This document shows positions 22,039 through 47,464 of a DNA stretch of 64,000 nt, piece by piece. Numbering within the stretch: position 1 is the first letter of the stretch; every line of letters begins with the position of its first letter. The notes beneath the pieces are model-generated. The model was given only the letters and a program-made list of their open reading frames with translations. It had not been told where the DNA came from and made no database searches. The translations under genes were made by a program, and so were the position numbers. Source of the stretch: an uncultured Candidatus Saccharibacteria bacterium (GTDB lineage: Bacteria > Patescibacteriota > CAZHWT01); NCBI GenBank assembly GCA_964536215.1, contig CAZHWT010000002.1, positions 20,573 to 84,572 on the forward strand, given 5' to 3'.

Positions 22039-22266
22039 TTTTCTTCTCTCCAATGCCTGCAATATTGCAGGATACAAATATACTACTATAGGTTACTAAT
22101 GTCAAGTTGGAATTGGCTAACTTTTGCATAGAACAAACAAGTATATCCTATAATATATTGATTATATAACTATAACGTGATATCATCAGCTCAGATTTTT
22201 ACTCGCATCACAAATGCGACAAAAGTCTTGCCCTTTAACAACTTGTGTTTGTGCAGGAGCAATTCT

Positions 22267-22821
22267 ATGGTTAGACAGGTTAGCGCCAAGGTGGTGCCGC
22301 GTAAAAACGGCATTATTCTTCTTGGACAAGCTGGAGAGGTGAGTATTACAGCCACAATAACAGTTCGCGATCAACGCCGCATTTATCGACAGTCTATGGC
22401 AACGGTAAGAGGCTTAAGGGTCTTTGCCGCCGCCAAACTGATCACAGAAGCCGCTACAAACCGATTTCTCGTTGCGGTGCAGCAAGAATTGTATTGGGAA
22501 GGACGGCAGATTTGGTCCGTTATAGACCCACTGGTTGGTAGCCGGGCCATTTATTCTTACCCTGAGAAAGTTTTTTCTTTTCCCAGGGACATGAAATTAG
22601 ATGGCGCTTGGGTATTGCAGTCCAGCATTGCCGTAGTGAGCATGGAGTCATTGCCAGAGTTAGGCAGAGACAGATTTCTGCAGGCTCTGCAGTACAATCC
22701 GCTCGGTCGCATGGAGTGGTACATTTACCACAACGAGCTCCTGGTGACGCCGACTGGTGAACGAAGGCCGGAAGTACCTCGCCCACGTCAAGATGTGGTC
22801 GTTGACATGAACGACATTTAG
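22267..22821 (+). CDS. hypothetical protein, first gene of the E2/JAB/E1 operon (candidate Ubl or substrate-recognition component)
   Basis: AGGAG RBS 8 nt before the ATG at 22267. A possible TTGCAT/TATAAT promoter lies upstream. The gene abuts the E2-like gene. Confidence 0.5.
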   Translation: MVRQVSAKVVPRKNGIILLGQAGEVSITATITVRDQRRIYRQSMATVRGLRVFAAAKLITEAATNRFLVAVQQELYWEGRQIWSVIDPLVGSRAIYSYPEKVFSFPRDMKLDGAWVLQSSIAVVSMESLPELGRDRFLQALQYNPLGRMEWYIYHNELLVTPTGERRPEVPRPRQDVVVDMNDI

Positions 22822-22838
22822 CAAAGGTGGTGTCTGCT

Positions 22839-23378
22839 ATGCCATACCGTTGGTTTTCAACCTATCATGAGAACAATTGGAGTCCTCAACGGGGCTACAA
22901 TGAGCTATTCGCCAAAGAAGTCCAGCAGGTCAGGGCATTCTTTTTCCTCGAACGAGTTTCGTTTGGGTTAGACCGGGGCGTAGGAAAATGGCGGAAATAT
23001 AACCGTGATGGAACAACGTATTATGCTCGCGTCAGTCAGTTTGAGTGGGGTAAGCTTTCTAAACTGGTAAAGTTTGAGAGCCCTGAATTCAGATTGCAGC
23101 TCGAGCTATCCACGAAACAGCATCAATCAGGTGTCTTTTTTAAAAAAAGCCTGGTTTTAGTATTTCCAACCAATTACCCTCGGGCTCGGCCTGACTGCAT
23201 CGTCGACTCTGCTCGATATCGCCAGCTCAGTGCATCCCACGATCATCACACATTTTCTAATGGTTGGATGTGTTTGACCAGCGATCAAAAACAATGGTCA
23301 GATGCATGCATGGCCGTAACGGCTATCAACTGGGCCGTAGAGTGGATTCATTTTCACTATACGACCTTTGGATTTTAG
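22839..23378 (+). CDS. E2-like (UBC-fold) ubiquitin-conjugating-enzyme-like protein, copy 1
   Basis: UBC-like landmarks are FPTNYPRARPDCIV..., HHTFSNGWMCL (HPN-like plus catalytic Cys) and W...INWAVEWI. RBS AAAGGTGG. Confidence 0.65.
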   Translation: MPYRWFSTYHENNWSPQRGYNELFAKEVQQVRAFFFLERVSFGLDRGVGKWRKYNRDGTTYYARVSQFEWGKLSKLVKFESPEFRLQLELSTKQHQSGVFFKKSLVLVFPTNYPRARPDCIVDSARYRQLSASHDHHTFSNGWMCLTSDQKQWSDACMAVTAINWAVEWIHFHYTTFGF

Positions 23379-23383
23379 AAAGG

Positions 23384-23983
23384 ATGGCGGGAATGCGCCA
23401 CTGGTTTACAACCTACACCGGAGCTGATTGGACGCCGCAACAATATGGCTATAACAGCCTATTTGCTGAGCATGTCCAGGTCATTCGCGATTATTATCGC
23501 CTCCGTAAACAGCGGCCAGGAGCAGAAATTGGCACTGGATACCGGCGCCAATACTCTCTTCAGGGCAAAGATTGGTCAATCGAAATTACGCGGTTTAGTT
23601 GGGGCAAATATCGCCGAGTTGGGAACGATTTAGTCGATAATGTTGGAGGCGACTACATCACCCCTCACTTGGAGTTGGAGTTTGTCATTTACGATAGCAC
23701 CGGACAGGTATTCATTAGTGATATCCCGATGGTGATCGAATTTGCGCCAGACTTCCCTGCCTCACCACCAAGGTTCCGATTGGATTCAGATCAGTATCGA
23801 GCCTTTAGTGGCACCGATGCCTCTCACCACATCCATAAAGGTGGATGGATGTGCATTATGGGCGGGGGGTACAGCTCTCGCTATACTACTTCGGAATGGA
23901 ATCCTGACGTCGACACTATTCTGGCCGGCCTTCACCGGGCATTTGACTGGATTGTGTGGCATCAGACCAAGTATGGATGGTGA
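23384..23983 (+). CDS. E2-like (UBC-fold) protein, copy 2 (paralog)
   Basis: Alignable to copy 1 (MRHWFTTY.. vs MPYRWFSTY..). Conserved HHIHKGGWMCI. The start is 5 nt after the copy-1 stop. Confidence 0.65.
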   Translation: MAGMRHWFTTYTGADWTPQQYGYNSLFAEHVQVIRDYYRLRKQRPGAEIGTGYRRQYSLQGKDWSIEITRFSWGKYRRVGNDLVDNVGGDYITPHLELEFVIYDSTGQVFISDIPMVIEFAPDFPASPPRFRLDSDQYRAFSGTDASHHIHKGGWMCIMGGGYSSRYTTSEWNPDVDTILAGLHRAFDWIVWHQTKYGW

Positions 23984-23988
23984 CAACC

Positions 23989-25266
23989 ATGACCGACAAC
24001 GCTGAAAAATCCACTCAGCAATCTGAATCGACGCCTGCTGCGAATGAACAGGCATCAATACTGTCCCCAGAAACCGCGACACCGCCTCAGAAAAAGTTAA
24101 ACTCGATCCTGGCCACCCTGAGAAAAATATTTTTCAATGGGTCCGAATCGAACACTGTATCTGAGGATGAACTGTTGGTTAAAGATCGAGCACCTCGCTC
24201 AGAGGAGTCGTCAGTAGTAATTGGGCCAACATTAGCAGAGCTTCTGGATAAGGCTCAAAAGCCTCATTCGGAAACGCCCTCAGCACCGCGGCCAAAACGG
24301 TTCGTCATTCCGCGCGTCGAGATTACCGCTGAGGTTATGTGCGTGATGGCCCAGGAAGTCATAGACAATGCCCATCAAGAGACCTCGTGGGGACTATACG
24401 GTATCCGCGATAGTCGCGATCAGGTCGTTATCTGTGGGGTATTGCTGCCAGATCACACCGTCCGTCGTAGTGTTGGCAATACAATATTTGGTTCGCCAAG
24501 TTATGGTGAAGAGATACGCTGGCTGAAAGCCAGTTATGAGTTTCGCAAAAAGCATGGCCTCGTGCCGGCAGATACCGAGCTCGAGTTCCTGTTCAAGGGA
24601 CACTCCCACCATACTCTAGGACTGCGGCGGTATTCTCCCACAGATATAGCATCCATTAAGGATGCAGTATCTAGTGGTTTAAGAATCGCCATTGGGCCAT
24701 TGGCCAACATTGACCGATTAGACCGCAAAGCCGATATCCGCTCAAGTGGAGATCGTGGTGCACTGACTATTCAAACAGGCAATTCCGTTACCTTCCATTT
24801 TTATTACCTATCACAGATGATGGTTGAAAATGGTATACGGGAGCCTGTCCTGATTCAACCGCACATTCGTAACGATAACTCTGTTACTCCACCACCAAGT
24901 TGCTGGAAGTTCCGCAAAGCTGACCTCTTTAGTCGTCAGATATCGCGACTTGCATCACATGGCTGTACTGTAACAGAGCAGTGGGCTGGCCAAAAGGACG
25001 GTTCACTACGGATTGTACTGAAGTTGACTCATCCTCATTGGGCAGGCGAGCTAAAAATTAGCACACCACACAATTTTCCCGATTCAGCCACGGAGATTAC
25101 CCTCCCGGATGGCCAGAAACAATTGTTTGAGCCAATTTCTGGAGCGGCTAATCCAGGCCAACAATTTGACCTGCTCGATATTGTTGTCGAGCTAGAACGA
25201 GAAGGAGCATTGTATGACCATGCAGTTGTATCGGACTCAGGGAATCCTGGACCTAAGCCAAGTTAG
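23989..25266 (+). CDS. JAB/MPN(+) metalloprotease-motif protein with a disordered Ser/Glu/Pro-rich N-terminus and a C-terminal region of unknown function
   Basis: JAMM-like motif GHSHHTLGLRRYSPTD (HxH...SxxD) with an upstream Glu. Operon position between E2 and E1. Confidence 0.55.
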   Translation: MTDNAEKSTQQSESTPAANEQASILSPETATPPQKKLNSILATLRKIFFNGSESNTVSEDELLVKDRAPRSEESSVVIGPTLAELLDKAQKPHSETPSAPRPKRFVIPRVEITAEVMCVMAQEVIDNAHQETSWGLYGIRDSRDQVVICGVLLPDHTVRRSVGNTIFGSPSYGEEIRWLKASYEFRKKHGLVPADTELEFLFKGHSHHTLGLRRYSPTDIASIKDAVSSGLRIAIGPLANIDRLDRKADIRSSGDRGALTIQTGNSVTFHFYYLSQMMVENGIREPVLIQPHIRNDNSVTPPPSCWKFRKADLFSRQISRLASHGCTVTEQWAGQKDGSLRIVLKLTHPHWAGELKISTPHNFPDSATEITLPDGQKQLFEPISGAANPGQQFDLLDIVVELEREGALYDHAVVSDSGNPGPKPS

Positions 25267-26134
25267 GCAGCAAAAGCTGCTGGTGCTTGGTCTAGGTAGC
25301 GTCGGTTCGCTATGCGTAAGCAATCTAGCCTACCCATGGCGGCAAATTGTCCTAGCTGACCCAGACACTCTGGAGCCAGAGAACATTGAACGCCATCTGC
25401 TAGGCCACGACGGCAACATCGGTCAACCTAAGGTTGACGGTGTTAAGCGATGGCTCGTAGATCGGGGCATGCAGGAGCAAAATATTACCGCCTATCATGG
25501 TAATGCTCTTGACATTCTTGATCAGCACACAGACGCCGATCTGGTGCTCGTTGCAATTGACAAACGTCGTGTCCGCGATGCAATTAATGGCTGGTGTTAT
25601 TCTCATCGAATCCCAGCTATGTATGGCGGCGTTTATCCTAAAGCCGTCGGTGGGCATATCATGGTTATACCGGATCCCCACCAAGCATGCTATCTGTGCG
25701 CCGAACACCTAATGGGTGGCGATACACAGGATAGCAAGGAGGTTAATTATGCTGTAGATATCACTCAAATTAAAGACGAGAGTGATATGGAGGCGGCTGT
25801 CGCTCTTCGCGCTCCAATCAATGCCATTGCCACTACCATGGCCAATCTGGCACTTGATTTTCTCAAAGGAAGTACGGTAGAATCCCAGGTATTCATTCAG
25901 GTGTTTGCCGAATGGGAAAATATCGTCATGTTGCCTCATCAGCACCCGGTTGTCGAAGCTTCTTCGCACTATGCGGAGCAGCTAAAGAAGACCATGCTGA
26001 TGCCAACAGAGGAGGTTCAAATTGACGGCCAATGGGCCGTTATAAATCGACGTAATACTACGGCTCAGTTGAGCTTGTATCGGTGGGCAAAGTGCCCGCT
26101 TCATCTTGCTCGTGTTGAGCTTGATCAAATTTAG
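25214..26134 (+). CDS. E1-like ThiF/MoeB-family adenylyltransferase
   Basis: Rossmann LVLGLGSVGS...LADPDTLEPENIERHLLG. CxxC near HQACYLCAE. GAAGGAG RBS. Overlaps the JAB gene by 53 nt. Confidence 0.75.
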   Translation: MTMQLYRTQGILDLSQVRQQKLLVLGLGSVGSLCVSNLAYPWRQIVLADPDTLEPENIERHLLGHDGNIGQPKVDGVKRWLVDRGMQEQNITAYHGNALDILDQHTDADLVLVAIDKRRVRDAINGWCYSHRIPAMYGGVYPKAVGGHIMVIPDPHQACYLCAEHLMGGDTQDSKEVNYAVDITQIKDESDMEAAVALRAPINAIATTMANLALDFLKGSTVESQVFIQVFAEWENIVMLPHQHPVVEASSHYAEQLKKTMLMPTEEVQIDGQWAVINRRNTTAQLSLYRWAKCPLHLARVELDQI

Positions 26135-26147
26135 AAAGAGGACAGAC

Positions 26148-26375
26148 ATGGTTAGGGACTTTAGCGCTGAGAATGAAATTCCCGAAGTCGAAGTGATCGA
26201 TCCGGGTGGAGCTCCGCAGGGGCTGGGGAACCGCTTCTTCGGCAATATTCCCGGTTTGGGAACGGTGCAACGGGCTATCCAGCCTGTTGAGATTGTCGAC
26301 GACGAGGGAAGGCCGGCAATGATGCAGGACGACGCTGGCATCCAGGCTGCTTCAAAGCGGCACACGTTTGCCTAA
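26148..26375 (+). CDS. small Gly/Pro-rich, probably disordered protein (75 aa) ending the operon
   Basis: AAGAGGA RBS 6 nt before the ATG. The sequence contains DPGG and low-complexity GLG repeats. Confidence 0.45.
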   Translation: MVRDFSAENEIPEVEVIDPGGAPQGLGNRFFGNIPGLGTVQRAIQPVEIVDDEGRPAMMQDDAGIQAASKRHTFA

Positions 26376-26495: not shown

Positions 26496-27788
26496 CTATC
26501 CTCCCGCTCGAGATTGCTTAGCGGCCGTATGGTGTTGCTCAGCCAGCAGCGCCACAAAGGAACGGCGCTCTTGAATGACTTTAACCTTGGCACTTAGGAT
26601 AGCTGCGTCCATCTTTCCGCCGCCTAAGCTGATGTACTCCAGTCTTTCCTCCTCTTTCTGTAATTGTCGAAGCACGTCTTCCGGCATGTCGTAAATAAAC
26701 ATCAGGCAATATTCCCAGGTCTGATCAAAATCAACCTCGAGTTGAATCAAATCTGACTGGACTTTCTCGACCTGAGCTAAGAGAGTTGCCTTGCTATCTC
26801 GCACCATGCTCAACGACTGCTTGGCTTGCTGGATAATTATGTCAGCGTCCACCATGGCTTGGATAGCTTCTTGCCAGTTTTGCGCATCCATACTAATCTC
26901 GTGCTGCAGTTGTGGCAGACGGGACCAGCAGTGGTTTATGACTTCTACTGCTGCCTTGAATATCCGACGTGGTTCCTCAAGGCAAGAGTCTGCATAGATG
27001 TCGGCGATCTCATTGATAACCTGCTCAGTCTGAGGGATATCCTTCACCCGCGCATCAGTCACTTCAGCAATAAACTCGCCAAGCGCCTTTTCGGCCCGCC
27101 CCTTGAACTCCACAAGCTTTTTTATTTTGCGCCGCGTGGCTACGAGGTGCTTGTGGTATTGCTTAGCCAAATCGGCTGCCATAAAAGGGTTCTGGTTCTG
27201 CTCACGAATCGCCTGTTCTAGTAGGTCCTTAGTTCTCAGGCATTCCTGATAAAACGGCTGGACCTGGTATTGCTGTCGAGCCAGTTCGTTTAATTCGCCG
27301 ACAGTCCTATGCAGCAAGTTCTCGGTTACTCGAATAGCTGCTTTTACTTCAACATAAGCAGCAGACAAGTTCTGCATCGCTGCTATTTGCTGCTGCATTG
27401 AGGAAGCCAAATGGACAAAGTTAGTATGGAGTAGTGACGACTTTCTGATCACAGCTTCAAATTGGTATTTTGAAGTAACGCGCCCCTCATTCCACTCTTG
27501 TACGAACTGAGACCAGGAGGTCGCCAATTCGTTATACCTGCGAAGACTGGCACTATACTCAGCCTCTCGCTGAGTAATCATTTCTGAATCGATTTGCAGT
27601 TGGGCCAGTTGATTCCAAGCGTCACGTAATTGTGAGCATAATTGACGAACTTCACGCTCCTTAACTGGAACTGCAACTACTTGTCGTGTCGCAGTCTGAC
27701 GAGCCTGATCAAAGGCTGACCAATTGGTCAGTCCGACCAGGATACCAATAAGCACTACTGCCACCAGTAGTGGAAGCCATATTGCCAT
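26496..27788 (-). CDS. membrane-anchored coiled-coil protein (EzrA-like architecture)
   Basis: N-terminal TM segment (MAIWLPLLVAVVLIGILVGL) followed by ~400 aa of heptad-rich helix. AAGGAGG RBS. Confidence 0.55.
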   Translation of the reverse strand: MAIWLPLLVAVVLIGILVGLTNWSAFDQARQTATRQVVAVPVKEREVRQLCSQLRDAWNQLAQLQIDSEMITQREAEYSASLRRYNELATSWSQFVQEWNEGRVTSKYQFEAVIRKSSLLHTNFVHLASSMQQQIAAMQNLSAAYVEVKAAIRVTENLLHRTVGELNELARQQYQVQPFYQECLRTKDLLEQAIREQNQNPFMAADLAKQYHKHLVATRRKIKKLVEFKGRAEKALGEFIAEVTDARVKDIPQTEQVINEIADIYADSCLEEPRRIFKAAVEVINHCWSRLPQLQHEISMDAQNWQEAIQAMVDADIIIQQAKQSLSMVRDSKATLLAQVEKVQSDLIQLEVDFDQTWEYCLMFIYDMPEDVLRQLQKEEERLEYISLGGGKMDAAILSAKVKVIQERRSFVALLAEQHHTAAKQSRAGG

Positions 27789-27999: not shown

Positions 28000-28167
28000 T
28001 TAGCTCTTCTTGCCACCGTTGTTGCCACCCCCGCCCTTGAGCGAGTCGTGGTGATCTTTCTTTTTCTCAAAGTTTTTAGACTTTGAGGAGTCGTCGGCCT
28101 TTTTTTCTCGGTCTCCTGACTTTTTGTTGCCGAACGGGGTATAGTTGGGTTTAGGCTTGTTTGCCAT
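28000..28167 (-). CDS. small Lys/Gly-rich basic protein (55 aa)
   Basis: AGGAGA RBS before an internal ATG. Ends ...GGGGNNGGKKS. Divergent from the giant gene. Confidence 0.4.
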   Translation of the reverse strand: MANKPKPNYTPFGNKKSGDREKKADDSSKSKNFEKKKDHHDSLKGGGGNNGGKKS

Positions 28168-28473
28168 GCTCCATCTCCTGGAGTATGCGGCAGATACCGC
28201 GCAGTGCTCAGACTCCCTAAGCGAGGCTATGGTACCACAATTATATGTAAAGCACAATAGTAAAACTAAAAGGTTACATTAGCGTAGCGGAAGCTGTTGT
28301 AGGAGTATAACGTCGTGGCTATGATCCGACTAACAATTCTCACACTTATCTTTACCACAGAATATCTCACATGATTGCCGGTGCAAGCTTAAGTGTCGGT
28401 TAGTAAAAGTTTATACTAGTAGCTGTCAAAAGTATTGGACAGAAATTGGCAATGGAATAACGGTCATCTAGCC

Positions 28474-31400
28474 ATGGAATGGCCTCCAGTTCAGATGCTA
28501 TACTTGATTCTAATGTCCTCTGAATTTGGTACACCCCCACCAGATAAACTGCAATTGGTTGAGAAAGCTGACGCTCCTGCATTAAAGCAAGCCCCACTGC
28601 ATACACACCGACCTGTTGAGATTCAACACATCGAGCATAGTACTAATATAGATACTAGCTATGGCGAGAAAACCTGGCATCCATCGCAGTCTATTGTCGA
28701 TTTGCTTCAGAACCACCTCGACGCTAATACTTCTGCCTTTGAAAAGTCACGCCTCAAATTAGTTGGTATATCGGAATACAAACCTGATCAACAGGCCATC
28801 CTGGAGTCAATGTCCCTCTTTGCGGCTGAAACAGATCCTGTCGTCCAAGAAGTACACTTTCATAAGCTTGTGGCGCTACTTGAATCATCCTCTGGCATTA
28901 GCACACTGCTTCAGGATAGCCAACAGAATATGAATGCATTATGGCAGCAGCTTCAAGAGGTAAGGTATGAAGTCCCAGAGCTTAAGCTGAAGCTAAGCAA
29001 CGGCCAAACAAGTAAATTCGTGTCCTATACAGAAGTGGCGACGGAGGACTCCGAATGGCAGGTCGTTGGTTACCTTATAGCAGATAATGGGCCCGGCTTT
29101 GATCATGCGCTGCTTGGCCTGATGGGTGCTACAACTAAAGGCGAAGATGACAATAGACGAGGTGGATTGGGTGAAGGGTTAAAAATGAGCCTAGCCCAGT
29201 TGAATAGGGTTGGCGCGGATGTGCGGATCCTGTCCCGGAATACCGACCAATCGTGGTGGCTTAAGCCCCAGGTTAATGACGGGCTTTTGTCGCTGGATGG
29301 TACGGCTGTCGATCGGAAGCTGACAGTTCAATCGCCATCGGAAGGGTCTCGGACAATGGTTGATCTTAGTCAAGCCAATATGACAGACCTGCAATGGAGA
29401 GAAATTCGGAACATCTTGGATAGTCGAATCTCGCCCGAAGGCATTGCTAAGTATGTCCTGGAGTTCCATCCCGACATAGCCCCAGAAAAGCTCGAAGGCG
29501 ATGCCTTGTTTCAGAATGAAGTGCCAGCTGGGCGGGTGTACGTTAAAGGACTGCTGGTTGAGGAAGATCGGTCAGATTTACTTTGGAGCTACAACTTATC
29601 GGACAAATGGGCCATTTCTGGCCGCGATCGCAAGACGGTTGATGTAGCCATACTTGACGTAGCCATTATCGACAAGTTGACTGACTTGACAGACTACGAG
29701 TCTATCTTGCAGATAGTCCGACTAATGAATGATCCATCCACAGATATCATTCCCCGGGAAGTAAGATGCCTGCGGTTTATCTATAAATTGCCGGAGTCTC
29801 AGCAGTCACTCTGGCGACAGGCAATAGAGGAAGTATTTCATTTTGAGTCAGGTAAGACTGTGTTCTGCCCATCGAATGCCGACTTTGAACATAAACGATT
29901 AGCCGAACAACGCGGCTATACATTGCTGGTCGTCAGGCCAGAGATTTTATCCATGTTATCCATTATTTCCGCAGCCTATGATCCCTCGCCTGTCTATAGA
30001 TTAGATGAACTTGTGAAGCAGCTCACTGCATCGGACGAATCAACTGAAACGATTGATAAAACTTTTAACGCCGTGCTCCATCATATGGTAGAAAGCTATG
30101 CAGCTGATAATCTGGCTACAATCCCGCGCAGTCAATATCAATTAGGCAATCTGTCTTTTGTGCACAAAACAAATAGTAATGCAGATAGATTTATGACCGA
30201 CTTCCCATATTGGGTAGACTGGTATAAGGATACGATCGCAGTTGATACCGACGCCATCTCTAATGGCTTTGCTCGCGATGCCGATTTGCTGCTAGCCACA
30301 GAGATGTTCTTCGAATGGAAATCGTCATTCACTGACGAAGTACAACATGCCTTGGGTCAAATGGTGGCCAGCGCAGTGCTTCGTCATCACCCGGAGCTGT
30401 TCGAAGTGGCGTTGCCAAGTCATATTGCAGAGCGCATTGCTGTAGATGTGCCTAACATTGGCTACACTAATGAACAGCGTCAGAAAGATGCTGTAAAAAT
30501 TGCCTTCGACTACTTAGAAGCACAGCTTTATCATTTAGCAACCGATGAGGACCGCCAGCAATTTCTAGCGTCAATTGAGGCGACCAAGCAGTTATTGGCT
30601 GGGACGGACGCAGATATAGTCAAATCTGTACCACTGTCTTCGTTTATATACCTACCATTTCATGTTGCTGGTCAACTAAAATGGGTTACTGAAGAGCTAG
30701 AGGTAGCTGACAACGCAAAGGATTTTCCATGGCTAAAACTGCGTCGATCGCCGGATGAAATAGATGATTTACAATCCCTTAATTATATGCTCTTGGATAT
30801 ACCTGTAGGGCAATACAAATCCTACGGATATAAGGCCGGCGATCAGAAAGGACGATTGGTTATATCAAGGACGGACTATGGATATAGTGTTGATCGTATC
30901 GAAGATATCCTGACAGCATCTGACACTTCAAGCCACAATCAGGCTGCTATCGATGAAAAGGCCGGGGACAATGTTCAATCGTTTATCTTGGGCGATTTGT
31001 TATATATAAATCTCAATCAGCCGGATGCTCAATTTTATGAAATTCCCACTCCTCAAACTACTCCGCTTCCAGAAAAAAATCGGGGTTTAGAATTTATTTC
31101 GGCTAACACGACGTTAGATTATGGTAGCAAAGTCTGGAGTGATCCCAAGCGCATCCTGATCGATGCTATTCAGAATCATCGTGATGCCAATGGTGGTCAG
31201 CCGCCACGCATTACCTTCCAGATTAGTAATAGCCAGGGCGAGACTATGGATGTAGATATGGCCGCCCTCACTGGCATGCCTTCAGATTGGGTGATTGTGA
31301 GCGTGTCAATTGAAGATCATGGCACGGGATATACCACTCCATATCTGGTGCAAATGGGGAGTAGTACCAAAACTGATGCAGACGCAGGTAAGTTTGGAGA

Positions 31401-32853
31401 GGGGCTGAAGATGTTGACCGCCGCAGCTACGCGCCAGCAGATTGACCTCCGGTTGGAATCTAAGGATTGGCAGGCTTCTCCTACTTCAACAACCGAACAA
31501 GCTATTGACCATGACACTGGTCAGAGTAAACAGTTTGACGTTCTAGCCTATAATCTTAAGTGGTCTGATCGGCCTAGAGATGGATCCATGACCACCTTCT
31601 CTATTTTTAGCAACGGTCACCCCTGGAGCCGCCAGCAATTTGAACAGCTGCAGCGGTCGGAAGAATTGCTTGTGAACGATGCGCATGTACCGCAGCGAAT
31701 CCGAACGTGGCGCCAATGGTTGGACATACTTGATCCTCGCGTTACCGATGCCACCGGAAATACTGGACTGGATAGGTTTGTGTTGCCGGTTGAGTCAGAG
31801 AAATTTTACAACGCATATGTCAGCGTGTTAACAGATCGACCTGGCCAAGTCTTTGAAAAGAATTTGCTTATACCTGACGCTGCTACAAGCCTTAATGGCA
31901 GCAAGCAGCTCATGTTTGGCTATAACTTGCACCAGTCAACCATAAACACGAGAGAGCGAAATGCCATTTCACCAACAGTCTTTAAGGATACTGTTTCCCA
32001 GTATTTTAATCAGGACGCTGGCAGTGTCATCTTTAAGGAGATGCTAAGTAGAGCCAAAGAGGATCCTCAGACTAGTTATTATGAGTATGAGCTTTTAGAA
32101 GAGTCTGACCGTGTGCAGATACTTTTACGGCAGGCCTACTATGACGTCTTTGGTGATGATGCTATTTTGTCTATCGCTAGCATTTCTGAACAACAGCATC
32201 AAGAAGAGTTGATGAAGGTGCATTTAGAGCGAGCTAATACGGTATTCCTACCACCTTTCCTAACAAGGCGGCTCAGTAAGTCGGTTTATACAACGGCTGA
32301 CTATTTCAAGAATTTAGAGGGTAAAGAAGTTGAAGTAACCGATCAAGAGCGCGCTCAGTTGTACACATTAGCTACCCGCGTTAACCAAATTGTTGATGAT
32401 TATTACCGGCAAATGTTAAATGATCCAGACAAGCTGCAGTACCTTAGTAAGGGATGGCTAAAGCTAGGCTATGACCAAGGTGAAGTGGTTGATGTTATCA
32501 GGGATCGACTTGCTCAATTGTCTCAGATGAATGAGCAGGATATTAGAGTTGGCTCTAGTTTAAATCCTCATGGCGGCATGTATAAAACCGGCCAGGATAA
32601 TCGAATTAAAATCGAGGTCAGTCAAGTCTTATTGCATAATCATAAAGCATTTTTGGAGGTCTATCTTCATGAGGTTATTCACCATATGACTGGAGAAAAT
32701 GATTTTGAGTTAGGCTTCGTCCGAGGTTTTGTGGCTTTGGCTATGCAGGCAGATGAGCACGTTCAACGCCTTACGAAAATAGAGCAAAAGGCGCTATCAT
32801 TGCCGTTGATTCGTAAATTTTTGAATGCCAGAACGCGTATCAAGCGAAGATAG
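28474..32853 (+). CDS. giant protein with two tandem GHKL (Bergerat-fold) ATPase-like modules and a C-terminal HExxH motif
   Basis: Motif set 1 is LLQNHLDAN / IADNGPGF / GGLGEGLKM; set 2 is IDAIQNHRDAN / IEDHGTGY / GKFGEGLKM (N-box, G1, G2). C-terminal YLHEVIHHMTGEND. The start is uncertain: TTG at 28435 or ATG at 28474 or 28513. Confidence 0.7.
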   Translation: MEWPPVQMLYLILMSSEFGTPPPDKLQLVEKADAPALKQAPLHTHRPVEIQHIEHSTNIDTSYGEKTWHPSQSIVDLLQNHLDANTSAFEKSRLKLVGISEYKPDQQAILESMSLFAAETDPVVQEVHFHKLVALLESSSGISTLLQDSQQNMNALWQQLQEVRYEVPELKLKLSNGQTSKFVSYTEVATEDSEWQVVGYLIADNGPGFDHALLGLMGATTKGEDDNRRGGLGEGLKMSLAQLNRVGADVRILSRNTDQSWWLKPQVNDGLLSLDGTAVDRKLTVQSPSEGSRTMVDLSQANMTDLQWREIRNILDSRISPEGIAKYVLEFHPDIAPEKLEGDALFQNEVPAGRVYVKGLLVEEDRSDLLWSYNLSDKWAISGRDRKTVDVAILDVAIIDKLTDLTDYESILQIVRLMNDPSTDIIPREVRCLRFIYKLPESQQSLWRQAIEEVFHFESGKTVFCPSNADFEHKRLAEQRGYTLLVVRPEILSMLSIISAAYDPSPVYRLDELVKQLTASDESTETIDKTFNAVLHHMVESYAADNLATIPRSQYQLGNLSFVHKTNSNADRFMTDFPYWVDWYKDTIAVDTDAISNGFARDADLLLATEMFFEWKSSFTDEVQHALGQMVASAVLRHHPELFEVALPSHIAERIAVDVPNIGYTNEQRQKDAVKIAFDYLEAQLYHLATDEDRQQFLASIEATKQLLAGTDADIVKSVPLSSFIYLPFHVAGQLKWVTEELEVADNAKDFPWLKLRRSPDEIDDLQSLNYMLLDIPVGQYKSYGYKAGDQKGRLVISRTDYGYSVDRIEDILTASDTSSHNQAAIDEKAGDNVQSFILGDLLYINLNQPDAQFYEIPTPQTTPLPEKNRGLEFISANTTLDYGSKVWSDPKRILIDAIQNHRDANGGQPPRITFQISNSQGETMDVDMAALTGMPSDWVIVSVSIEDHGTGYTTPYLVQMGSSTKTDADAGKFGEGLKMLTAAATRQQIDLRLESKDWQASPTSTTEQAIDHDTGQSKQFDVLAYNLKWSDRPRDGSMTTFSIFSNGHPWSRQQFEQLQRSEELLVNDAHVPQRIRTWRQWLDILDPRVTDATGNTGLDRFVLPVESEKFYNAYVSVLTDRPGQVFEKNLLIPDAATSLNGSKQLMFGYNLHQSTINTRERNAISPTVFKDTVSQYFNQDAGSVIFKEMLSRAKEDPQTSYYEYELLEESDRVQILLRQAYYDVFGDDAILSIASISEQQHQEELMKVHLERANTVFLPPFLTRRLSKSVYTTADYFKNLEGKEVEVTDQERAQLYTLATRVNQIVDDYYRQMLNDPDKLQYLSKGWLKLGYDQGEVVDVIRDRLAQLSQMNEQDIRVGSSLNPHGGMYKTGQDNRIKIEVSQVLLHNHKAFLEVYLHEVIHHMTGENDFELGFVRGFVALAMQADEHVQRLTKIEQKALSLPLIRKFLNARTRIKRR

Positions 32854-33589: not shown

Positions 33590-34903
33590 CTAATCGGTGC
33601 TCAGTTCGCTAAATCTTTCGGTCATGGTCGGGTTGCCGCGAGTCAGTTTTTTGACAGTTAAATCTTCAGCTTTGCCATTGGCAATACGCAGATTATCTTC
33701 GGATCGAAGCAGGTTTTCTTTAGTTTTCTGAAGTTGCGCTATAGATTTGTCGATATTGTCGATAGCGTCTTTAAATCGTTCGGATGCAAGACGATAGTTG
33801 CGACCAAAGGAGTCGCGAAAGTCATTTAGTTGATTCTCAAAATTTGTCACATCAATATTTTGTTCTCGCACCAGAGCTAGCTCGGCCTTATACTTGAGTG
33901 AGTTAAGAGCTGCGTTGCGCAGCACTGTAATCATGGGGATAAAAAATTGCGGCCGGATAACATACATTTTGTCGTGTCGGTGCGACATATCAACAATACC
34001 GGTATTATAAAATTCATTTTCACCTTCGAGCAACGACACCAACACCGCATACTCACATTTCTTTTGCGTTCGATCCTTATCTAATTCTTTTAAAAAATCC
34101 TCGTTGCGCTTTTTAGTTGCTGTTTCATCGCCCTCATTTTTCATCTCAAACATTATCGAGATTAGCTCATTCCCCTGTTCATCATTCTCCCGATAAATGT
34201 AGTCCCCTTTACTACCCTCACGCACTTCATTATCTTTCTCAAAATATGCCTTCTGGAAAGCTGTGGCCCGCAATTTATTAAACTCAATCTCACAATGCTG
34301 CTCCAATGTCTCTCCAACCATCTTAGTTGAAAGCTTGGCTTTCATATCTTTGTAATAAGCAATCATTTCCTCTTTGGTCTTCAGCTCGTTTTGGAACTTT
34401 TCATTCAGCAGCAACACTTCAGATTTTTGCTCAGCCTCTTTATTCTTTAAGTCGTAAGCCAATTGGTCACGTTCTTTTTTGATTTTACCAACTGCCTCAG
34501 TTAAAGCCAGCTTTTTATCAGTTTCCGCCGCCAAGATCTGCGACTGTAGCTTGGCAATCTCCATTTCCTTCTTAGACATAGCTTCTTGTAACTCGTTTTT
34601 AGTCTTGCTTTGCGCTAAAACCACCGCATCCACCTTTTCTTTTTCCAGCATGGCAATTTTATTGAGCAGTTCCTGTTCCTTAACTTTGGCCTCCAAAGCC
34701 TTCTCCCGCTCAACACTCAACCGCTCCCTAGCCACCTCCGCCTCAAAAGCCTCATTCTTAAGTGCCTCAAGAATAGTTTCCAAATTGGACTTATCAATGT
34801 CCGTCTCATGCAAAGACTTCAAATCAACCAAATCCCCCTTAACCCCATCCTCCTGCAACATCAACGTATGCTCATCCTGAATTGAAACTTTAATTGTTTT
34901 CAT
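33590..34903 (-). CDS. coiled-coil protein, DUF2130-like (RmuC-like architecture)
   Basis: AGGAGA RBS before the ATG at 34903. Long Lys/Glu-rich coiled coil plus a C-terminal conserved globular region. The family name is from memory. Confidence 0.5.
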
Positions 34904-35107
34904 ATCGGATTCTCCTAATCTTTGATTTATCAACATAAACGGCGTGTAATGCTTAATATTGTAATTAAGAACATTAAGCGTAGGCCTTTGTCATTCTGAA
35001 CACAGTGAATCATCCACCCCCCCCGATATAGCATTTACCTGGAAGATCCTTCGCATATGCTCAGGATGACAATTGTCTGAGAGGGTTTCGCTATGAGCTT
35101 TAATTAC

Positions 35108-36127
35108 CTACCCTTGTAGCAAGTGCATAACCAGTGCAATCATAACCTCTTTCTGCTTAGGATCACTTTCAGCGATTAATAGTGTGAGTGCAACTAAGGC
35201 ATTTTCATCCACCTTGGACCCACCGATCGTCTTGGTTAAATAATTATTCTGAGACAGAAAATAAATAAACAGAAGAGCCGCAGATCGCTTATTTCCATCA
35301 CTAAATGGATGGTCCTTAATCACAAAATAAAGCAAGTGAGCAGCCTTATGCTCGATAGATGGATACAATTCCTCACCATCAAATGTTTGATAAATAGCAC
35401 CCAAAATACCTTGGAACGACTCATCTCGCTCATTACCAAACAACTCAGAGGCTTCCCCTTTGCCAACCAGATCTACTTTTAAGGTAGCAATGGCTTCCCG
35501 GGCTTTATCGTAGGTTAGTTCAAATGAAGGACTCCTGCCATGCTCCACCTGCTCCAACTTGCCATCATCGTATTGCTGCAACAAAGCCCAACTTGAAGCA
35601 TAGTCTGTCACAAGTCGCATTAACGCTACAGCCTCATCATCCGAAAGATCGCCGCGAGACGATAATCTCTCAACAGTTTGCGGAAACAGCGACAACGCTT
35701 GCTGAAACTGTTTGATTTGCTCACCATTCAACCGCGTATGGTTCAACGCATAGCCTCTCAGCAGATATTCTTTAAGCACAGAATTAGCCCAAATGCGAAA
35801 TTGTGTTCCCCTCTTGGAATTGACCCGGTATCCCACAGAGATGATCATATCTAGATTATAAAAATCTATTTCTCGCTCTACTTGACGATTGCCTTCCATA
35901 CGAACTATTCGGAATTTCCGAATAGTTGGGGCTGATTCAAGTTCGCCTTCACCATAGATACTCTTGATATGTTCGTTAATTGTCGGGGCAGTGCGGTCAA
36001 ACAACTCAGCCATCTGGGCCTGTGACAGCCAGACGGTTTCCTGCTCCAGTCGAACATCAACAGCCGTCGATCCATCCGGATTGGTGTACAAAATAACTTC
36101 GCCAGTTTTTAAATCCTGATTATTCAT
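35108..36127 (-). CDS. Fic/DOC family protein with RhuM-like N-terminal domain
   Basis: Fic motif HPFSDGNKRSAALL. N-terminal RhuM-like region (YRVNSKRGTQFRIWAN). GAGGAG RBS. Confidence 0.8.
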   Translation of the reverse strand: MNNQDLKTGEVILYTNPDGSTAVDVRLEQETVWLSQAQMAELFDRTAPTINEHIKSIYGEGELESAPTIRKFRIVRMEGNRQVEREIDFYNLDMIISVGYRVNSKRGTQFRIWANSVLKEYLLRGYALNHTRLNGEQIKQFQQALSLFPQTVERLSSRGDLSDDEAVALMRLVTDYASSWALLQQYDDGKLEQVEHGRSPSFELTYDKAREAIATLKVDLVGKGEASELFGNERDESFQGILGAIYQTFDGEELYPSIEHKAAHLLYFVIKDHPFSDGNKRSAALLFIYFLSQNNYLTKTIGGSKVDENALVALTLLIAESDPKQKEVMIALVMHLLQG

Positions 36128-36277
36128 ACGAGAGCTCCTCAATCAGCTTATCACACTTCTAAAATACGCCTGACCATGTTCGGGTATTATTCGCCTAAAC
36201 CGTTTAACCGTCAACAGCCAACCTAAGAATTGCACAGTTAATTCCATAATGACTTCAAATCCACTCAGGCAAATCAA

Positions 36278-43343: not shown

Positions 43344-43911
43344 GATTTACTTGTACACCCTGAAAGTAAGATATGTCAAGTATGTACAAAAAGTAATGTG
43401 GAACTTTGGAACATTATTTAACTGGAGGTAGATATAGATTCGGAATCCCGTTGCAGCAAAAACTTAGCTAATCGTCTAGTAACACAGATCGGGTGTCTGA
43501 AGCTATCCAAATCTTAAGCAAAATGTACCTCAATCGATTAAAGCGTAGAAGATTCTAAATGCACGACCGAATTGATGTTAAAGAGAAAGACAAACCGGAG
43601 CAACTATGTAATAAATAATCTTTTGGTAGAAACATTAATATTAAATGCGACTGATTCAGAATAATCGGTTGATGCCCTACTGTTGTGGTAAGAACGAAAA
43701 AAATCCGCTCAATCGACCGAAATGCAGTGTGACTAGGCTAAGATTATTGGGTTAAATAGCAGCTACTTTAAAAATTAACTCCGGCTTCATCAAAATCATT
43801 CTTCAACAGAGTTTCTAGCTTGAAAATTAAACTTATCTGCCATCTAGTTGCCGAATAAGTTCCGTGCAGGCCCATAGCTCTCAATCGTCCTACACCCAAT
43901 TATGCGCTCTG

Positions 43912-43984
43912 TGGAGATGACGGGAGTCGAACCCGTTCCTCTCTCTTGATAAGAGAGTGATCTAACCGCTAATTCTACATCCCC
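43912..43984 (-). tRNA. tRNA-like gene with atypical anticodon loop UUAUCAA (apparent anticodon ATC)
   Basis: Canonical T-arm (ACGGG-TTCGACT-CCCGT), a 7-bp acceptor stem, GG in the D-loop, and an A.A mismatch in the D-stem. No encoded CCA. Confidence 0.55.
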
Positions 43985-44091: not shown

Positions 44092-44742
44092 TCAAGATTG
44101 CTGCTTGCCTTCAGCTTGTTTCAGTTTGACAGTCTCAATAATCTGTTGGCAATAGTCACAAATAATAGCGCAACACTCACCAGTAAGATTAATAGAGACA
44201 GTCTTATGGTTATGCTTAAAAGAATGGTGGCCAATTGTAAAATCCACCATTCTAGCAGAAGAACCCTCGTCCTGTTCTCCCGAAACTCTACCTGCGTACA
44301 AAATGCTAGCGGAATTAGGATGGACAAATTCACTCAGTTGGTCGTAAGAACTTCGCAAATTTGGATGCGCATTAGTAGCCTTATCGATACAGGTCAATAT
44401 GTTTACAGACTGCGCCTCACTACCTGGCTCTCTCGAGCCATACAAGAATATATTAAAAACCTCAGCAGAGCTAGCGGTTTTTACCTTGTCCAGAGCATAG
44501 TACACAAGACCAACAGTCTCCAATAAACCTCGTATAATTGCGAAAGAGGTCAATGGTCTATTACTCTCAATCGACCAGATAGCTGATTCAGTCAACTCTT
44601 GAGTCCTGTTCAAAACACCAGTAACAAAAACTGTATGGGGATAGATTTTTCCTGTATCAGCAAAAAGCACTAATCCAGTATCAGTCAATTTTGGCAAAAG
44701 GTTTTTGAGCTGTTCAATGTCGGTATAGCTAACTTGATCCAT
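44092..44742 (-). CDS. hypothetical protein co-transcribed downstream of the MmeI-like enzyme
   Basis: AAGGAG RBS. Overlaps the upstream gene by 14 nt. Confidence 0.5.
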   Translation of the reverse strand: MDQVSYTDIEQLKNLLPKLTDTGLVLFADTGKIYPHTVFVTGVLNRTQELTESAIWSIESNRPLTSFAIIRGLLETVGLVYYALDKVKTASSAEVFNIFLYGSREPGSEAQSVNILTCIDKATNAHPNLRSSYDQLSEFVHPNSASILYAGRVSGEQDEGSSARMVDFTIGHHSFKHNHKTVSINLTGECCAIICDYCQQIIETVKLKQAEGKQQS

Positions 44743-47464
44743 CTCGCTCCTTATATTTATTAAACAATAATGCCACTCTTTCCGCGTCGTCGGCGAAAGG
44801 TTTCTTGCGGTAGAGTTTGTCTATGGCTTTATCTAGGCTTTTGTGGGCCTTGAGGAGGTCGGGGGGCATGGTTAGGGGGTCGTAGAGGTCAGCTAGGGTG
44901 CTGTTAGGGTAATTGCCGCGAGTGGCTAGGATGGCTTGAGCTAAGGTTTCTATCTCTGATTTTTGGTCCTCAGTTACGTTTTCCGGCCAGACGAAGTTGT
45001 TGTAAACAATATCTTTGGAATATTGATAATCGCTCTTTAGCCGGCCCGTGACCGCCCTTGTCCAAGACATGTGCATCCCAGATGTAAGTACAGCAAACTC
45101 GTACAGATTCGCATGATCAACCAATCTCAATTTATTACTACAAAGCACATCAGGGCCAAGGAATTGTATGGGTATGTAATTTCTGCGTTCTGAGGATACT
45201 TCAGGAAGAGCAATGTAGTTTGACTTCGAAATAAATCGGGTATGAAATCGAGTGGGATAATCTGCAATCTTTCTAGTAGAAGAACTTGGGCTAGATAAGC
45301 GATACTGTCTAACGGCCTCAATACGCTTTAAGACATGCGGCATGGTCTTGAGTTCGGAAGGGCTTGCTTCGTCCAAATATAAATACCACCTCTCAATCCC
45401 ATTCAAGAACTCAACCCCGCCCAACCATCGCTTGAAGAACTTCTCAGCATTGAGCTCTAGTTGTAAAAATTCCGCTTTCTCCTGGGGGGTAAACAAATAA
45501 TTGCCGCCATCGATAGGCTTATTCCCCGATACCATAACTGGCACATCGCAAATTGGCTTGCTTCGACTCTGAATAAGCACATCAGGTGCGTTAACCAGAT
45601 AGGGATTAATGTGCTCTACTGATTGTTCTACAGCCTCGCCACGAATATCTGGGTAGTCAAAAATATATTTATCTTTGGCTTGATGAGAATCTTTGGAAAA
45701 GCCGATGATCACACAGTAGACAGCCGCCACACCTTTGGCATCGTTGGTCCACTTAAACGTTCGGTGAGCAAAATTAATGGCAATATGTAGGTCAAATAGA
45801 TACTTCCATAGAATACCGACCTGCTCGCCCTGAGTAATCGAATTAGTCGACACCAAAGCAGCTCGAACGGCTGGATTACTATCCATCATTCGGGCAGCCT
45901 TAGCGTACCACGCGCTGACAAAATCCAAAACTCCCACCTTATCTTGCCCATTAAAAACCGCCTTTACCTCATCCCTCTGCGTTTGAGACATAATCTTAGC
46001 TCCAATAAACGGCGGGTTACCTATAATAAAGTCTAACTTTTGTGGCTCTATGACTTCGGTCCAATCCTGCTGCAGCGCATTAGCATTCACAATATTAGCG
46101 CTCTTAGTCAGCGGCAACCGCTTAAAGGTGGAACCGGACAACTGGCTAAATTCCATGTTCATCTGGTGGTCGGTTAGCCATAGTGCGGTTTGGGCGATGA
46201 GGGCGGGGAATTCTTCGATTTCTATCCCGTTCATTTGGTCCACATTAACCCGCACCCTAGACCCCACTCCCTCCAACCCACTAGCATCAAAAATATTCCC
46301 CTTATCCTTGTATAACAAATCAATCACCTTATGCTCCAACCGTCGCAACTCCCGATAAGTAATCACCAAAAAATTCCCACTCCCACACGCCGGATCCAAA
46401 AACGTCAACCCAGCCAGCTTATCGTGAAACTCCGCCAATTTAGCCTTACTCCGCTTAACCCGGGCAAACTCCTCATACAACCCATCCAAAAATAACGGCT
46501 TAATTACCTTAAGAATATTAGCCTCCGACGTATAATGAGCTCCCAAATTACGCCGCTCCGCCTCATCCATAACTCCCTGGAACATACTGCCAAAAATAGC
46601 CGGCGACACCTTACTCCAATCCAGACGCATCGCCATCAACACCTGCTGTCGCATATCCGACCTAAACGACGGCGTTCGTAAACTCTCGGCAAACAACCCA
46701 CCATTTATATACGGAAAACTAGCCAAATCCTGGTCCAGCGAACTCTGCCGTTGATCCTCTGGTGTCCGCAGCACCTCAAAAAACTCCCGCATCCGACTAC
46801 CGAAATCCGACCCATCCGGGGCTGTTCGCCGCTCCAAATACTCCTCCAGACTCTTGCGAGCAAAAATCCCCGCATCGTCAGCAAAAAAGCAGAACACCAA
46901 CCGCACCAGCAATAACTCCAAATCGTGCCCAGTATAATTATCCTCCCGCAAGGCATTATGTAGCCGAGCCATAGCCTCCGCCGCCTGCCGGTTAACCGGC
47001 TCCTCCTCGGCCAACTGCCGACTCTGCTGTCCCACCAAAAAGCCAAACAACCGCACCTGCTTAGGCAAGTCGGCTAAGACAAACTCTGTCTCCGCCTTAG
47101 ACTCCAAATCAATAAACCGGAAAGTAGCAAAATCGCTCACCACAATCCCTAGCGGCAAATCCGCATCTGGCATATTAGGCAAATAATCATAGGCCTGAAC
47201 CTTAGCATCGCCCAAATCTCGACCGCCCGACTTCTGCTCCGCTAACAACTTACCCGGCCAGAACAAATCAATAAACCCCTGCTGACCGCCGGACTTCTTA
47301 ATCGCGTATTCAAAAAAGGCTCCATGCCGCCGCCTATCCACCCCAAACACATCCAAAAATTCCGACCAAAACGACTGTGACTCCCCCTTCTCGTACGTCT
47401 CGCCCGCCCACCGAGAGGCAAAAGCTACCGCACGTGATTCAATTTCATTCCAGGAAAGAGGCAT
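44729..47464 (-). CDS. MmeI-family Type IIL restriction-modification enzyme (fused endonuclease / gamma-class N6-adenine methyltransferase / TRD)
   Basis: The N-terminus LSWNEIESRAVAFASRW...FFEYAIKK...GFIDLFWPGKLLAEQKSGGRDL matches the MmeI N-terminal domain. Methyltransferase motifs are LDPACGSGNFLV and IIGNPPF. 911 aa. Confidence 0.8.
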   Translation of the reverse strand: MPLSWNEIESRAVAFASRWAGETYEKGESQSFWSEFLDVFGVDRRRHGAFFEYAIKKSGGQQGFIDLFWPGKLLAEQKSGGRDLGDAKVQAYDYLPNMPDADLPLGIVVSDFATFRFIDLESKAETEFVLADLPKQVRLFGFLVGQQSRQLAEEEPVNRQAAEAMARLHNALREDNYTGHDLELLLVRLVFCFFADDAGIFARKSLEEYLERRTAPDGSDFGSRMREFFEVLRTPEDQRQSSLDQDLASFPYINGGLFAESLRTPSFRSDMRQQVLMAMRLDWSKVSPAIFGSMFQGVMDEAERRNLGAHYTSEANILKVIKPLFLDGLYEEFARVKRSKAKLAEFHDKLAGLTFLDPACGSGNFLVITYRELRRLEHKVIDLLYKDKGNIFDASGLEGVGSRVRVNVDQMNGIEIEEFPALIAQTALWLTDHQMNMEFSQLSGSTFKRLPLTKSANIVNANALQQDWTEVIEPQKLDFIIGNPPFIGAKIMSQTQRDEVKAVFNGQDKVGVLDFVSAWYAKAARMMDSNPAVRAALVSTNSITQGEQVGILWKYLFDLHIAINFAHRTFKWTNDAKGVAAVYCVIIGFSKDSHQAKDKYIFDYPDIRGEAVEQSVEHINPYLVNAPDVLIQSRSKPICDVPVMVSGNKPIDGGNYLFTPQEKAEFLQLELNAEKFFKRWLGGVEFLNGIERWYLYLDEASPSELKTMPHVLKRIEAVRQYRLSSPSSSTRKIADYPTRFHTRFISKSNYIALPEVSSERRNYIPIQFLGPDVLCSNKLRLVDHANLYEFAVLTSGMHMSWTRAVTGRLKSDYQYSKDIVYNNFVWPENVTEDQKSEIETLAQAILATRGNYPNSTLADLYDPLTMPPDLLKAHKSLDKAIDKLYRKKPFADDAERVALLFNKYKERDGSS

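Follow-up and report, generated by a model that had tools for sequence, protein, structure and literature searches.

A large Saccharibacteria protein with two GHKL ATPase modules and a C-terminal zincin metalloprotease domain

The gene described here is located in a 64,000-nucleotide stretch of DNA (hereafter, the window; positions 20,573 to 84,572 of contig CAZHWT010000002.1) from an uncultured Candidatus Saccharibacteria bacterium and encodes a 1459-amino acid (aa) protein that combines two GHKL ATPase modules with a minimal zincin metalloprotease domain at the C terminus. These domain assignments can be made with high confidence. The protein is a GHKL ATPase coupled to a hydrolase that lies outside the MutL, type II topoisomerase, Hsp90, MORC, sacsin and SprT families, and no description of a GHKL plus SprT/zincin architecture was found in the literature. 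Conservation of both the ATP-binding and the protease sites, together with conservation of the fusion itself, argues for functional coupling between the two activities, and the reading that we prefer is ATP-gated proteolysis by an intramolecular GHKL clamp, a proposal whose prospects appear about even. The gene is stand-alone, without a conserved partner, so that the suggestion made in an original prediction from the DNA, namely, that it forms one defence locus with a nearby E1/E2/JAB operon, is not supported.

Domain architecture of the GHKL-zincin protein

The N-box, G1 and G2 motifs of both GHKL modules, all six of which had been named in the original prediction, are present at coordinates verified by translation (Table 1). 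In an alignment of 19 homologues, the N-box Asn residues (N80 and N901), both G1 boxes, both G2 boxes and the C-terminal HExxH motif are invariant or nearly so. Counted over about 280 domain instances from 156 family proteins, the N-box Asn is kept in 259 of 272 GHKL domains, the G1 Asp in 280 of 282, and the Gly, Glu and Lys residues of the G2 motif GxxGEGxK in about 99%. The motifs are not chance matches, and both heads retain the full ATP-binding motif set. The N-box had been described as ExxxNxxDA: the Asn and Asp-Ala part holds, but the leading Glu does not. In both modules, the residue four positions before the Asn is Asp (D76 and D897), so that the motif reads DxxxNxxDA; the same Asp is found in 259 of 266 family domains, and Glu in only 5. 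The Glu at this position is the general base in GyrB, MutL, Hsp90 and MORC. Jackson and Maxwell are said to have found in 1993 that the E42D mutant of GyrB retains reduced ATPase activity, that is, that Asp can act as a GHKL general base; for this reason, the Asp of the present family seems compatible with ATP hydrolysis, and the substitution suggests that the cycle is likely to be slow.

Standard profile searches do not classify the protein. Scans with Pfam and NCBIfam yielded no model above threshold; the Pfam HATPase_c model scores 22.4 bits, below its cut-off of 26.4, and this cut-off is passed by several relatives (P0005, P0010, P0088 and P0104), with another (P0067) passing that of HATPase_c_3. 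No family of PADLOC-DB 2.0 matches the protein at E-values up to 0.1, and a direct sequence search of the PDB returned only noise (TraT, E-value 0.5). An affinity with histidine kinases (NCBIfam ActS/PrrB, E-value 1.7e-3) was considered and rejected because the match is confined to the G1-G2 region and reaches 17 bits against a cut-off of 350.

The fold was sought in AlphaFold2 models of the two halves, which were built on family alignments. The model of residues 860-1459 has a mean predicted local distance difference test (pLDDT) score of 82.7; for residues 1-870 the mean is 73.8, and the values in the head and middle domain are 80-95. Fold searches with these models recover the Bergerat alpha/beta sandwich in both modules, and the predicted structures thus confirm two genuine GHKL modules in one chain, as originally proposed. 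The best structural matches are the ATPase domains of type IIA topoisomerases and Hsp90/TRAP1, with the N-terminal half closest to Hsp90/TRAP1 and module 2 resembling type II topoisomerases; somewhat lower scores were obtained for topoisomerase VI-B (9.0), MORC3 (8.9), SMCHD1 (8.9), MutL (8.7) and MORC2 (8.5). The earlier characterization of the doubled module as uncommon is borne out, given that no Pfam, NCBIfam or PADLOC family is matched at threshold. Its description as "sacsin-like or MORC-like" holds at the superfamily level only: topoisomerase II and Hsp90 rank above MORC2, MORC3, SMCHD1 and MutL, and no sacsin model of NCBIfam matches the protein. In GHKL domain 1, the N-box helix is separated by a helical insertion of about 70-80 aa (approximately residues 97-165) from the strand that precedes G1.

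In the C-terminal domain, the HExxH motif and its catalytic Glu are located on the helix that carries the active site of a predicted zincin fold. The zinc-protease-like motif noticed in the original prediction near the C terminus, HEVIHHMTGEND, is thus present in the expected structural setting and is conserved in the family, as is a Phe just beyond this segment (F1415). Among the family proteins, the first His is found in 122 of 127, the Glu and the second His in all 127, the Asp in 126 of 127 and the Phe in all 124; in the one protein without this Asp, its place is taken by His, which commonly serves as the third ligand. The conserved third-ligand residue is accordingly an Asp (D1410), seven positions after the second His, instead of the His that is typical of SprT. 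Among proteases, sequence profiles match SprT/Spartan only, and the match is weak: the SprT-like Pfam model PF10263 scores 16.5 bits, below the cut-off of 25.6, with the best relative (P0017) reaching 22.8 bits. Within the chain, the HExxH...D metal-binding and catalytic site is retained by the C-terminal zincin only. In some compact or divergent members of the family (5 of 127; for example, L029 and L023, from Melainabacteria and Omnitrophota metagenome-assembled genomes), HExxH is replaced by EExxH, and the compact forms also show a different spacing of the Asp at the protease site, as in HEKTHHNTDGAQD.

The two halves of the protein align with each other in a direct comparison (BLASTP E-value 4e-12), and a profile-profile comparison with hhalign yields a probability of 100% and an E-value of 1.3e-44 over 306 columns; the halves are homologous. 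The repeated unit consists of the head, the middle domain and the helices that follow it. The transducer-like middle domains share the motifs LDPR, Y/F-x-K-G/N-L-L and S/G-Y-N, and differ in a further motif that is GRDR in module 1 versus TRER in module 2. The N-terminal half probably carries a dead second copy of the protease, predicted in the structural model, in which the catalytic positions are replaced (His by Leu, Glu by Ala, His by Met and Asp by Ser). Comparison of the region after module 1 with that after module 2 by hhalign is not significant (E-values 0.044 and 0.099), and the best comparison of deeper sub-alignments, which places this segment exactly on the protease active site, is the one with an E-value of 0.099; the assignment is therefore derived from structure. 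In the compact two-module relatives described below, there is no room for a pseudo-zincin between the modules and, consequently, the duplicated piece could have been either the whole unit or GHKL-MID alone.

The gene is a single uninterrupted open reading frame (ORF) on the plus strand, with mechanical bounds of 28435-32853 and a TTG start codon at 28435; the 1459 aa are counted from the ATG at 28474 and the stop codon occupies 32851-32853. The true start is uncertain in that the homologues in the alignment of 19 begin near Met14. Fourteen independent metagenome contigs, all from the same strain and matched through the 1472-aa form that starts at the TTG (P0020), carry the intact ORF, and the relatives are full length with unfragmented reading frames. 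The two points on which the original prediction had been made to depend, a predicted Bergerat fold and an intact ORF, are thus both found. The protein is acidic (isoelectric point, pI, of 5.0), as is each of its domains (pI 4.4-5.9), with only the last 28 residues being basic. No transmembrane segment or signal peptide is predicted, and the protein is therefore best interpreted as soluble and cytoplasmic, with a mass of about 165 kDa.

Forms and distribution of the family

The extent of the family strongly depends on the search method. A word-indexed search through 5.8 billion proteins gave no more than 19 relatives, each of 1269-1575 aa, and a repeat search with the alignment as the query brought up these 19 and no others. 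When residues 860-1459 were used in an exhaustive profile search, 1533 cluster representatives were retrieved at E-values up to 1e-3, 180 of them at E-values up to 1e-30. The nearest relative, from another Saccharibacteria assembly, shows 41% identity. A weak precomputed match to PF25856 (MPN635_N) that accompanies some relatives was not reproducible with the local copy of Pfam.

When architectures were called with domain hidden Markov models cut from the family alignment, the dominant arrangement was GHKL-MID-GHKL-MID-(HEL)-SPRT. Three forms can be distinguished. The long two-module form, to which the protein from the window belongs, spans 1350-1950 aa; in the compact two-module form, of about 970-1100 aa, module 2 starts about 45 residues after module 1; the single-unit form, of about 490 aa, consists of GHKL-MID-zincin with an HExxH-x6-D motif and comes from archaeal assemblies. 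Far larger relatives exist as well: in an Elusimicrobia assembly (JAKLIF010000007.1; L030, 5981-22177), a 5398-aa ORF embeds the unit of two GHKL modules and a zincin at approximately aa 1348-2247, together with methyltransferase, GNAT, peptidase M3, PP2C and SLOG/LOG domains, and another giant relative (P0135) has 6439 aa.

According to the taxon labels of the metagenome assembly records, this rare family is found mostly in genome assemblies of the candidate phyla radiation (CPR) and DPANN. The CPR/Patescibacteria assemblies include Saccharibacteria, Levyi-, Pacei-, Nomura-, Kerfeld-, Peri- and Parcubacteria, and the archaeal ones include DPANN (Woese- and Nanoarchaeota) and Methanosarcinales; other members come from Melainabacteria, Elusimicrobia, Omnitrophota and uncultured Gammaproteobacteria. 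No relative was found in phage and plasmid collections searched with tblastn or in a scan of viral contigs.

A putative ATP-operated clamp and its alternatives

The GHKL ATPases, including type II topoisomerases, MutL, Hsp90 and MORC, act by ATP-driven pairing of two heads that belong to two chains, and the GHKL cycle of MutL governs a metal-dependent endonuclease at the distal C terminus. The present family could have originated by tandem duplication of a unit of about 490 aa, comprising a GHKL head, a transducer-like middle domain and a C-terminal zincin, which is still found solo in archaea. This single-unit archaeal form would act as a homodimer, whereas the tandem forms would be covalently fused pseudo-dimers in which the two heads of one chain pair together and the second protease copy decayed after the fusion. 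Closing and opening of such an ATP-operated clamp may capture a macromolecular substrate or else make the only active protease accessible; the ATPase cycle would thereby gate proteolysis, in a logic similar to that of MutL. We assume that the clamp holds a protein substrate, with or without DNA as a cofactor (cf. Spartan and Wss1).

A broader and clearly more tentative version of this proposal, which we regard as possible rather than probable, is that the family represents a new class of ATP-dependent proteases that are driven by a GHKL clamp and not by an AAA+ ring, having evolved from an ancestral homodimeric GHKL-transducer-zincin protein to a fused pseudo-heterodimer in which one protease is active and the other dead, and that it serves as a protein-processing or quality-control machine in the ultra-small genomes of CPR and DPANN. 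As far as we know, each of the well-studied ATP-dependent proteases (Lon, FtsH, Clp, HslUV and the proteasome) relies on an AAA+ motor; the conserved fusion of a GHKL clamp with a zincin suggests a different way to couple ATP to proteolysis. The large "hypothetical" proteins of CPR and DPANN organisms are mostly unexplained. Furthermore, the series consisting of the single unit, the compact tandem and the long tandem with a dead second protease could illustrate how homodimeric GHKL machines become fused and asymmetric.

Several observations weigh against ATP-gated proteolysis as proposed. Replacement of the canonical Glu by Asp may result in slow hydrolysis or in ATP binding alone, and the score of the SprT-like Pfam model remains under its threshold (16.5 versus 25.6). 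The pseudo-zincin region is modelled with pLDDT of only about 60-70, its sequence signal has the E-value of 0.099 given above, and the compact relatives leave no space for it between the modules. Finally, the acidity of every domain (pI 4.4-5.9) and the lack of a recognisable DNA-binding domain weaken the Spartan-like, DNA-dependent version of the mechanism.

The comparison with known systems places the protein between several families. The likeness to MutL is one of logic, with a GHKL head and a transducer that control a C-terminal metal-dependent enzyme; unlike MutL, the protein ends in a zincin protease, has no detectable MutL_C domain, contains two heads per chain instead of forming a homodimer and has Asp as the general base. 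The heads structurally resemble the ATPase domains of type IIA topoisomerases (the 43 kDa fragment of ParE/GyrB and the Top2 ATPase), at 10-15% identity, but no Toprim or DNA-cleavage domain is matched in Pfam or NCBIfam and there is no conserved partner gene. They are also structurally similar to those of the Hsp90 family (TRAP1, GRP94 and HtpG), from which the protein differs in the lack of a Pfam or NCBIfam Hsp90 match and of the C-terminal dimerisation domain, and in the presence of tandem heads and a protease. Unlike the GHKL-S5 proteins of the MORC, SMCHD1 and paraMORC families, the protein itself gives no HATPase_c_3 match and has neither CW nor other chromatin domains nor a link to restriction-modification (R-M) genes. 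Sacsin, which has three Hsp90-like repeat regions in one chain, shares with it only the presence of multiple GHKL-type modules in a polypeptide; no sacsin model of NCBIfam or Pfam is matched and UBL, DnaJ and HEPN domains are missing, whereas sacsin has no protease. The protease domain is most similar to SprT/Spartan/Wss1 and to the minigluzincins selecase and proabylysin; however, SprT, Spartan and Wss1 use His as the third ligand where the present protein has Asp, as in Asp-ligand zincins, and the zinc-binding and DNA-binding subdomain of Spartan is lacking.

Among the alternatives to ATP-gated proteolysis, two appear equally unlikely. One is that the gene is a single-gene anti-phage or conflict system or effector, in which sensing of an invader causes the GHKL clamp to activate the protease against phage or host proteins, leading to abortive infection, or in which the protein provides one of several weapons, in the manner of polyvalent conflict proteins. 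GHKL-S5 ATPases have radiated widely in R-M and conflict systems (PMC3417536), and this precedent is in line with such a role, as are the location of the gene in a variable, defence-rich stretch of the window, the phage-type integrase encoded upstream of a family gene in another locus (L039) and the embedding of the two-GHKL-zincin unit in the 5398-aa multi-domain protein of Elusimicrobia. The lack of any PADLOC model that matches the protein points in the opposite direction, and so do the mostly housekeeping neighbours of the family genes (cell division, glycosyltransferases, ribosomal proteins, NusA and LepA), the sporadic character of defence-model matches among these neighbours and the failure to find relatives in phage and plasmid collections or viral contigs.

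The other is a DNA-loaded clamp-protease, that is, an analogue of Spartan/Wss1 for reduced genomes, in which the GHKL-transducer pair would form a closed clamp on DNA, in the manner of topoisomerase II, MutL and MORC, and the SprT-like protease would cut DNA-bound or crosslinked proteins. This possibility draws on the fact that SprT/Spartan is the only protease family detected by sequence, on the topoisomerase II-like character of module 2 and on the basic C-terminal tail; this tail, however, is not conserved, every domain is acidic, the N-terminal half is nearest to Hsp90/TRAP1, and the Pfam and NCBIfam scans revealed no domain of the DNA-binding, Toprim, MutL_C or zinc-ribbon types.

Less probable still, and in our opinion improbable, is that the GHKL modules serve as scaffolds, either ATP-binding or degenerate, that are uncoupled from the protease, such that the protein would be a large regulated metalloprotease or else an Hsp90-like chaperone without proteolytic activity. 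The replacement of the general-base Glu by Asp in both heads could be construed in this manner, but the residues of the ATP site and of the protease site are both nearly invariant, and the fusion persists in all three forms of the family, in bacteria as well as in archaea.

Genomic context

The GHKL-zincin gene is a separate transcription unit bounded by minus-strand genes on both sides. The E2/JAB/E1 operon upstream of it is a real one (Table 1), and additionally holds ORFs of 214 aa, 239 aa and about 75-89 aa; no ubiquitin-like protein was recognised in it. This operon had been taken to be the immediate neighbour of the GHKL-zincin gene, but two minus-strand genes intervene. The smaller of these, the 55-aa Lys/Gly-rich gene, from which the GHKL-zincin gene was correctly described as divergent, looks like a real, independently transcribed small gene, although it is not conserved beside the homologues that were inspected; a small ORF upstream of the closest homologue (L001) is unrelated to it in sequence.

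In five relatives whose loci were inspected gene by gene, no ThiF, E2 or JAB neighbour was found, and the neighbours are NUDIX, glycosyltransferase, cell-division, ribosomal-protein, NusA and LepA genes. In a wider survey that covered about 22 loci, the 143 neighbour ORFs contained no recurrent Pfam partner and no recurrent ThiF, E2 or JAB, clustering of neighbour ORFs revealed no partner common to the bacterial loci, and PADLOC matches were sporadic, with one or two members each. The conserved neighbours of the archaeal single-unit genes (MgtC/DUF4010, a methyltransferase, AlaE and 2OG oxygenases) seem to reflect mere synteny between related genomes and not an operon. One of the other loci (L040, 19529-22878, minus strand) encodes, about 5 kb from the family gene, a separate MORC-like HATPase_c_3 protein beside a DNA cytosine methylase; this pair resembles the classic GHKL-linked R-M pairs and seems unrelated to the GHKL-zincin family.

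It is thus very improbable that the GHKL-zincin gene and the ubiquitin-like conjugation operon make up one defence locus in which the protein would serve as a component, sensor or effector: despite the distance of only about 2.1 kb and the presence of a RhuM-Fic fusion and an MmeI-type R-M gene in the surrounding 20-47 kb, they are separated by two minus-strand genes, of which one has a strong terminator, and no contigs other than those of the same strain show the two side by side. The recurrent co-occurrence with E2 and E1 that was to be expected from the proposed defence locus is not found among the 22 other loci, and neither is the conserved co-occurrence or co-transcription that characterizes the bacterial E1/E2/JAB (Bil / 6E / CBASS-type II-like) systems. 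Adjacency to such an operon does not make a gene part of the respective system, and caution is due in this regard.

Table 1. Features of the GHKL-zincin gene and of its neighbourhood in the window.
Feature	Coordinates	Strand	Comments
Whole gene	28474..32853	+	1459 aa and stop; alternative start at Met14 (28513) fits homologues better
N-terminal region, about 49 residues	28474..28620	+	Poorly conserved; predicted disordered, pLDDT <50; no signal peptide or transmembrane segment
GHKL ATPase domain 1	28621..29373	+	About residues 50-300
N-box 1, DLLQNHLDA	28699-28725	+	D76, N80, D83, A84; Asp at general-base position
G1 box 1, DNGPG	29083-29097	+	D204, G206, G208
G2 box 1, GGLGEGLK	29161-29184	+	G230-K237
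Middle (transducer-like) domain 1	29374..29973	+	Invariant LDxR, YVKGL, SYN and GRDR (29620-29631) motifs, then helices
Probable degenerate zincin-like pseudo-protease domain	30061..30393	+	About residues 530-640; helix, three strands, two helices
Inter-module region	30394..31053	+	Helical stretch, then beta-rich domain (about residues 729-857); poorly conserved
GHKL ATPase domain 2	31084..31620	+	Residues 871-1049
N-box 2, DAIQNHRDA	31162-31188	+	D897, N901, D904, A905
G1 box 2, DHGTG	31315-31329	+	D948, G950, G952
G2 box 2, GKFGEGLK	31387-31410	+	G972-K979
Middle (transducer-like) domain 2	31621..32178	+	LDPR, FEKNLL, GYN and TRER (31948-31959) motifs
Helical connector, module 2 to protease	32179..32535	+	
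C-terminal minimal zincin metalloprotease domain (SprT- or minigluzincin-like)	32536..32766	+	Residues 1355-1431
Active-site motif HEVIHHMTGEND, HExxH-x6-D	32668-32703	+	H1399, E1400, H1403, D1410; 61 residues from the end
Basic C-terminal tail	32767..32850	+	28 aa, pI 12; only basic segment; not conserved
E2/JAB/E1 operon	22177-26375	+	Real operon; ends about 2.1 kb upstream of the GHKL-zincin gene
E2-like ORF	22827-23378	+	PADLOC E2, 2.7e-5
JAB ORF	23956-25266	+	436 aa; JAMM motif HSHH...SPTD
ThiF E1	25214-26134	+	Pfam, 1.5e-26
430-aa gene	26496-27788	-	N-terminal membrane helix, then long coiled coil; weak SMC/Rad50/SngA-type matches only
Intrinsic terminator of the 55-aa gene	27977-27940	-	15-bp stem, strong
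55-aa Lys/Gly-rich low-complexity gene	28000-28167	-	AGGAG ribosome-binding site
DUF2130 gene	33590-34936	-	Downstream; Pfam, 3.3e-88
RhuM-Fic fusion	35108-36142	-	Candidate defence family PDC-S23, PADLOC 6.3e-134; adjoins the DUF2130 gene
MmeI-type (type IIL) R-M enzyme	44729-47464	-	Complete, all five MmeI Pfam domains

The GC content is 0.41-0.44 across the 32-46 kb stretch of the window compared to 0.46-0.50 elsewhere, which suggests that this stretch is an acquired island. A tRNA-Asp gene predicted by ARAGORN (43911-43984, minus strand) lies within the low-GC stretch, adjoining the MmeI-type R-M gene, and has the anticodon loop TTATCAA, that is, the anticodon ATC, not the usual GTC. The window also carries a cytochrome bo-type oxidase operon.

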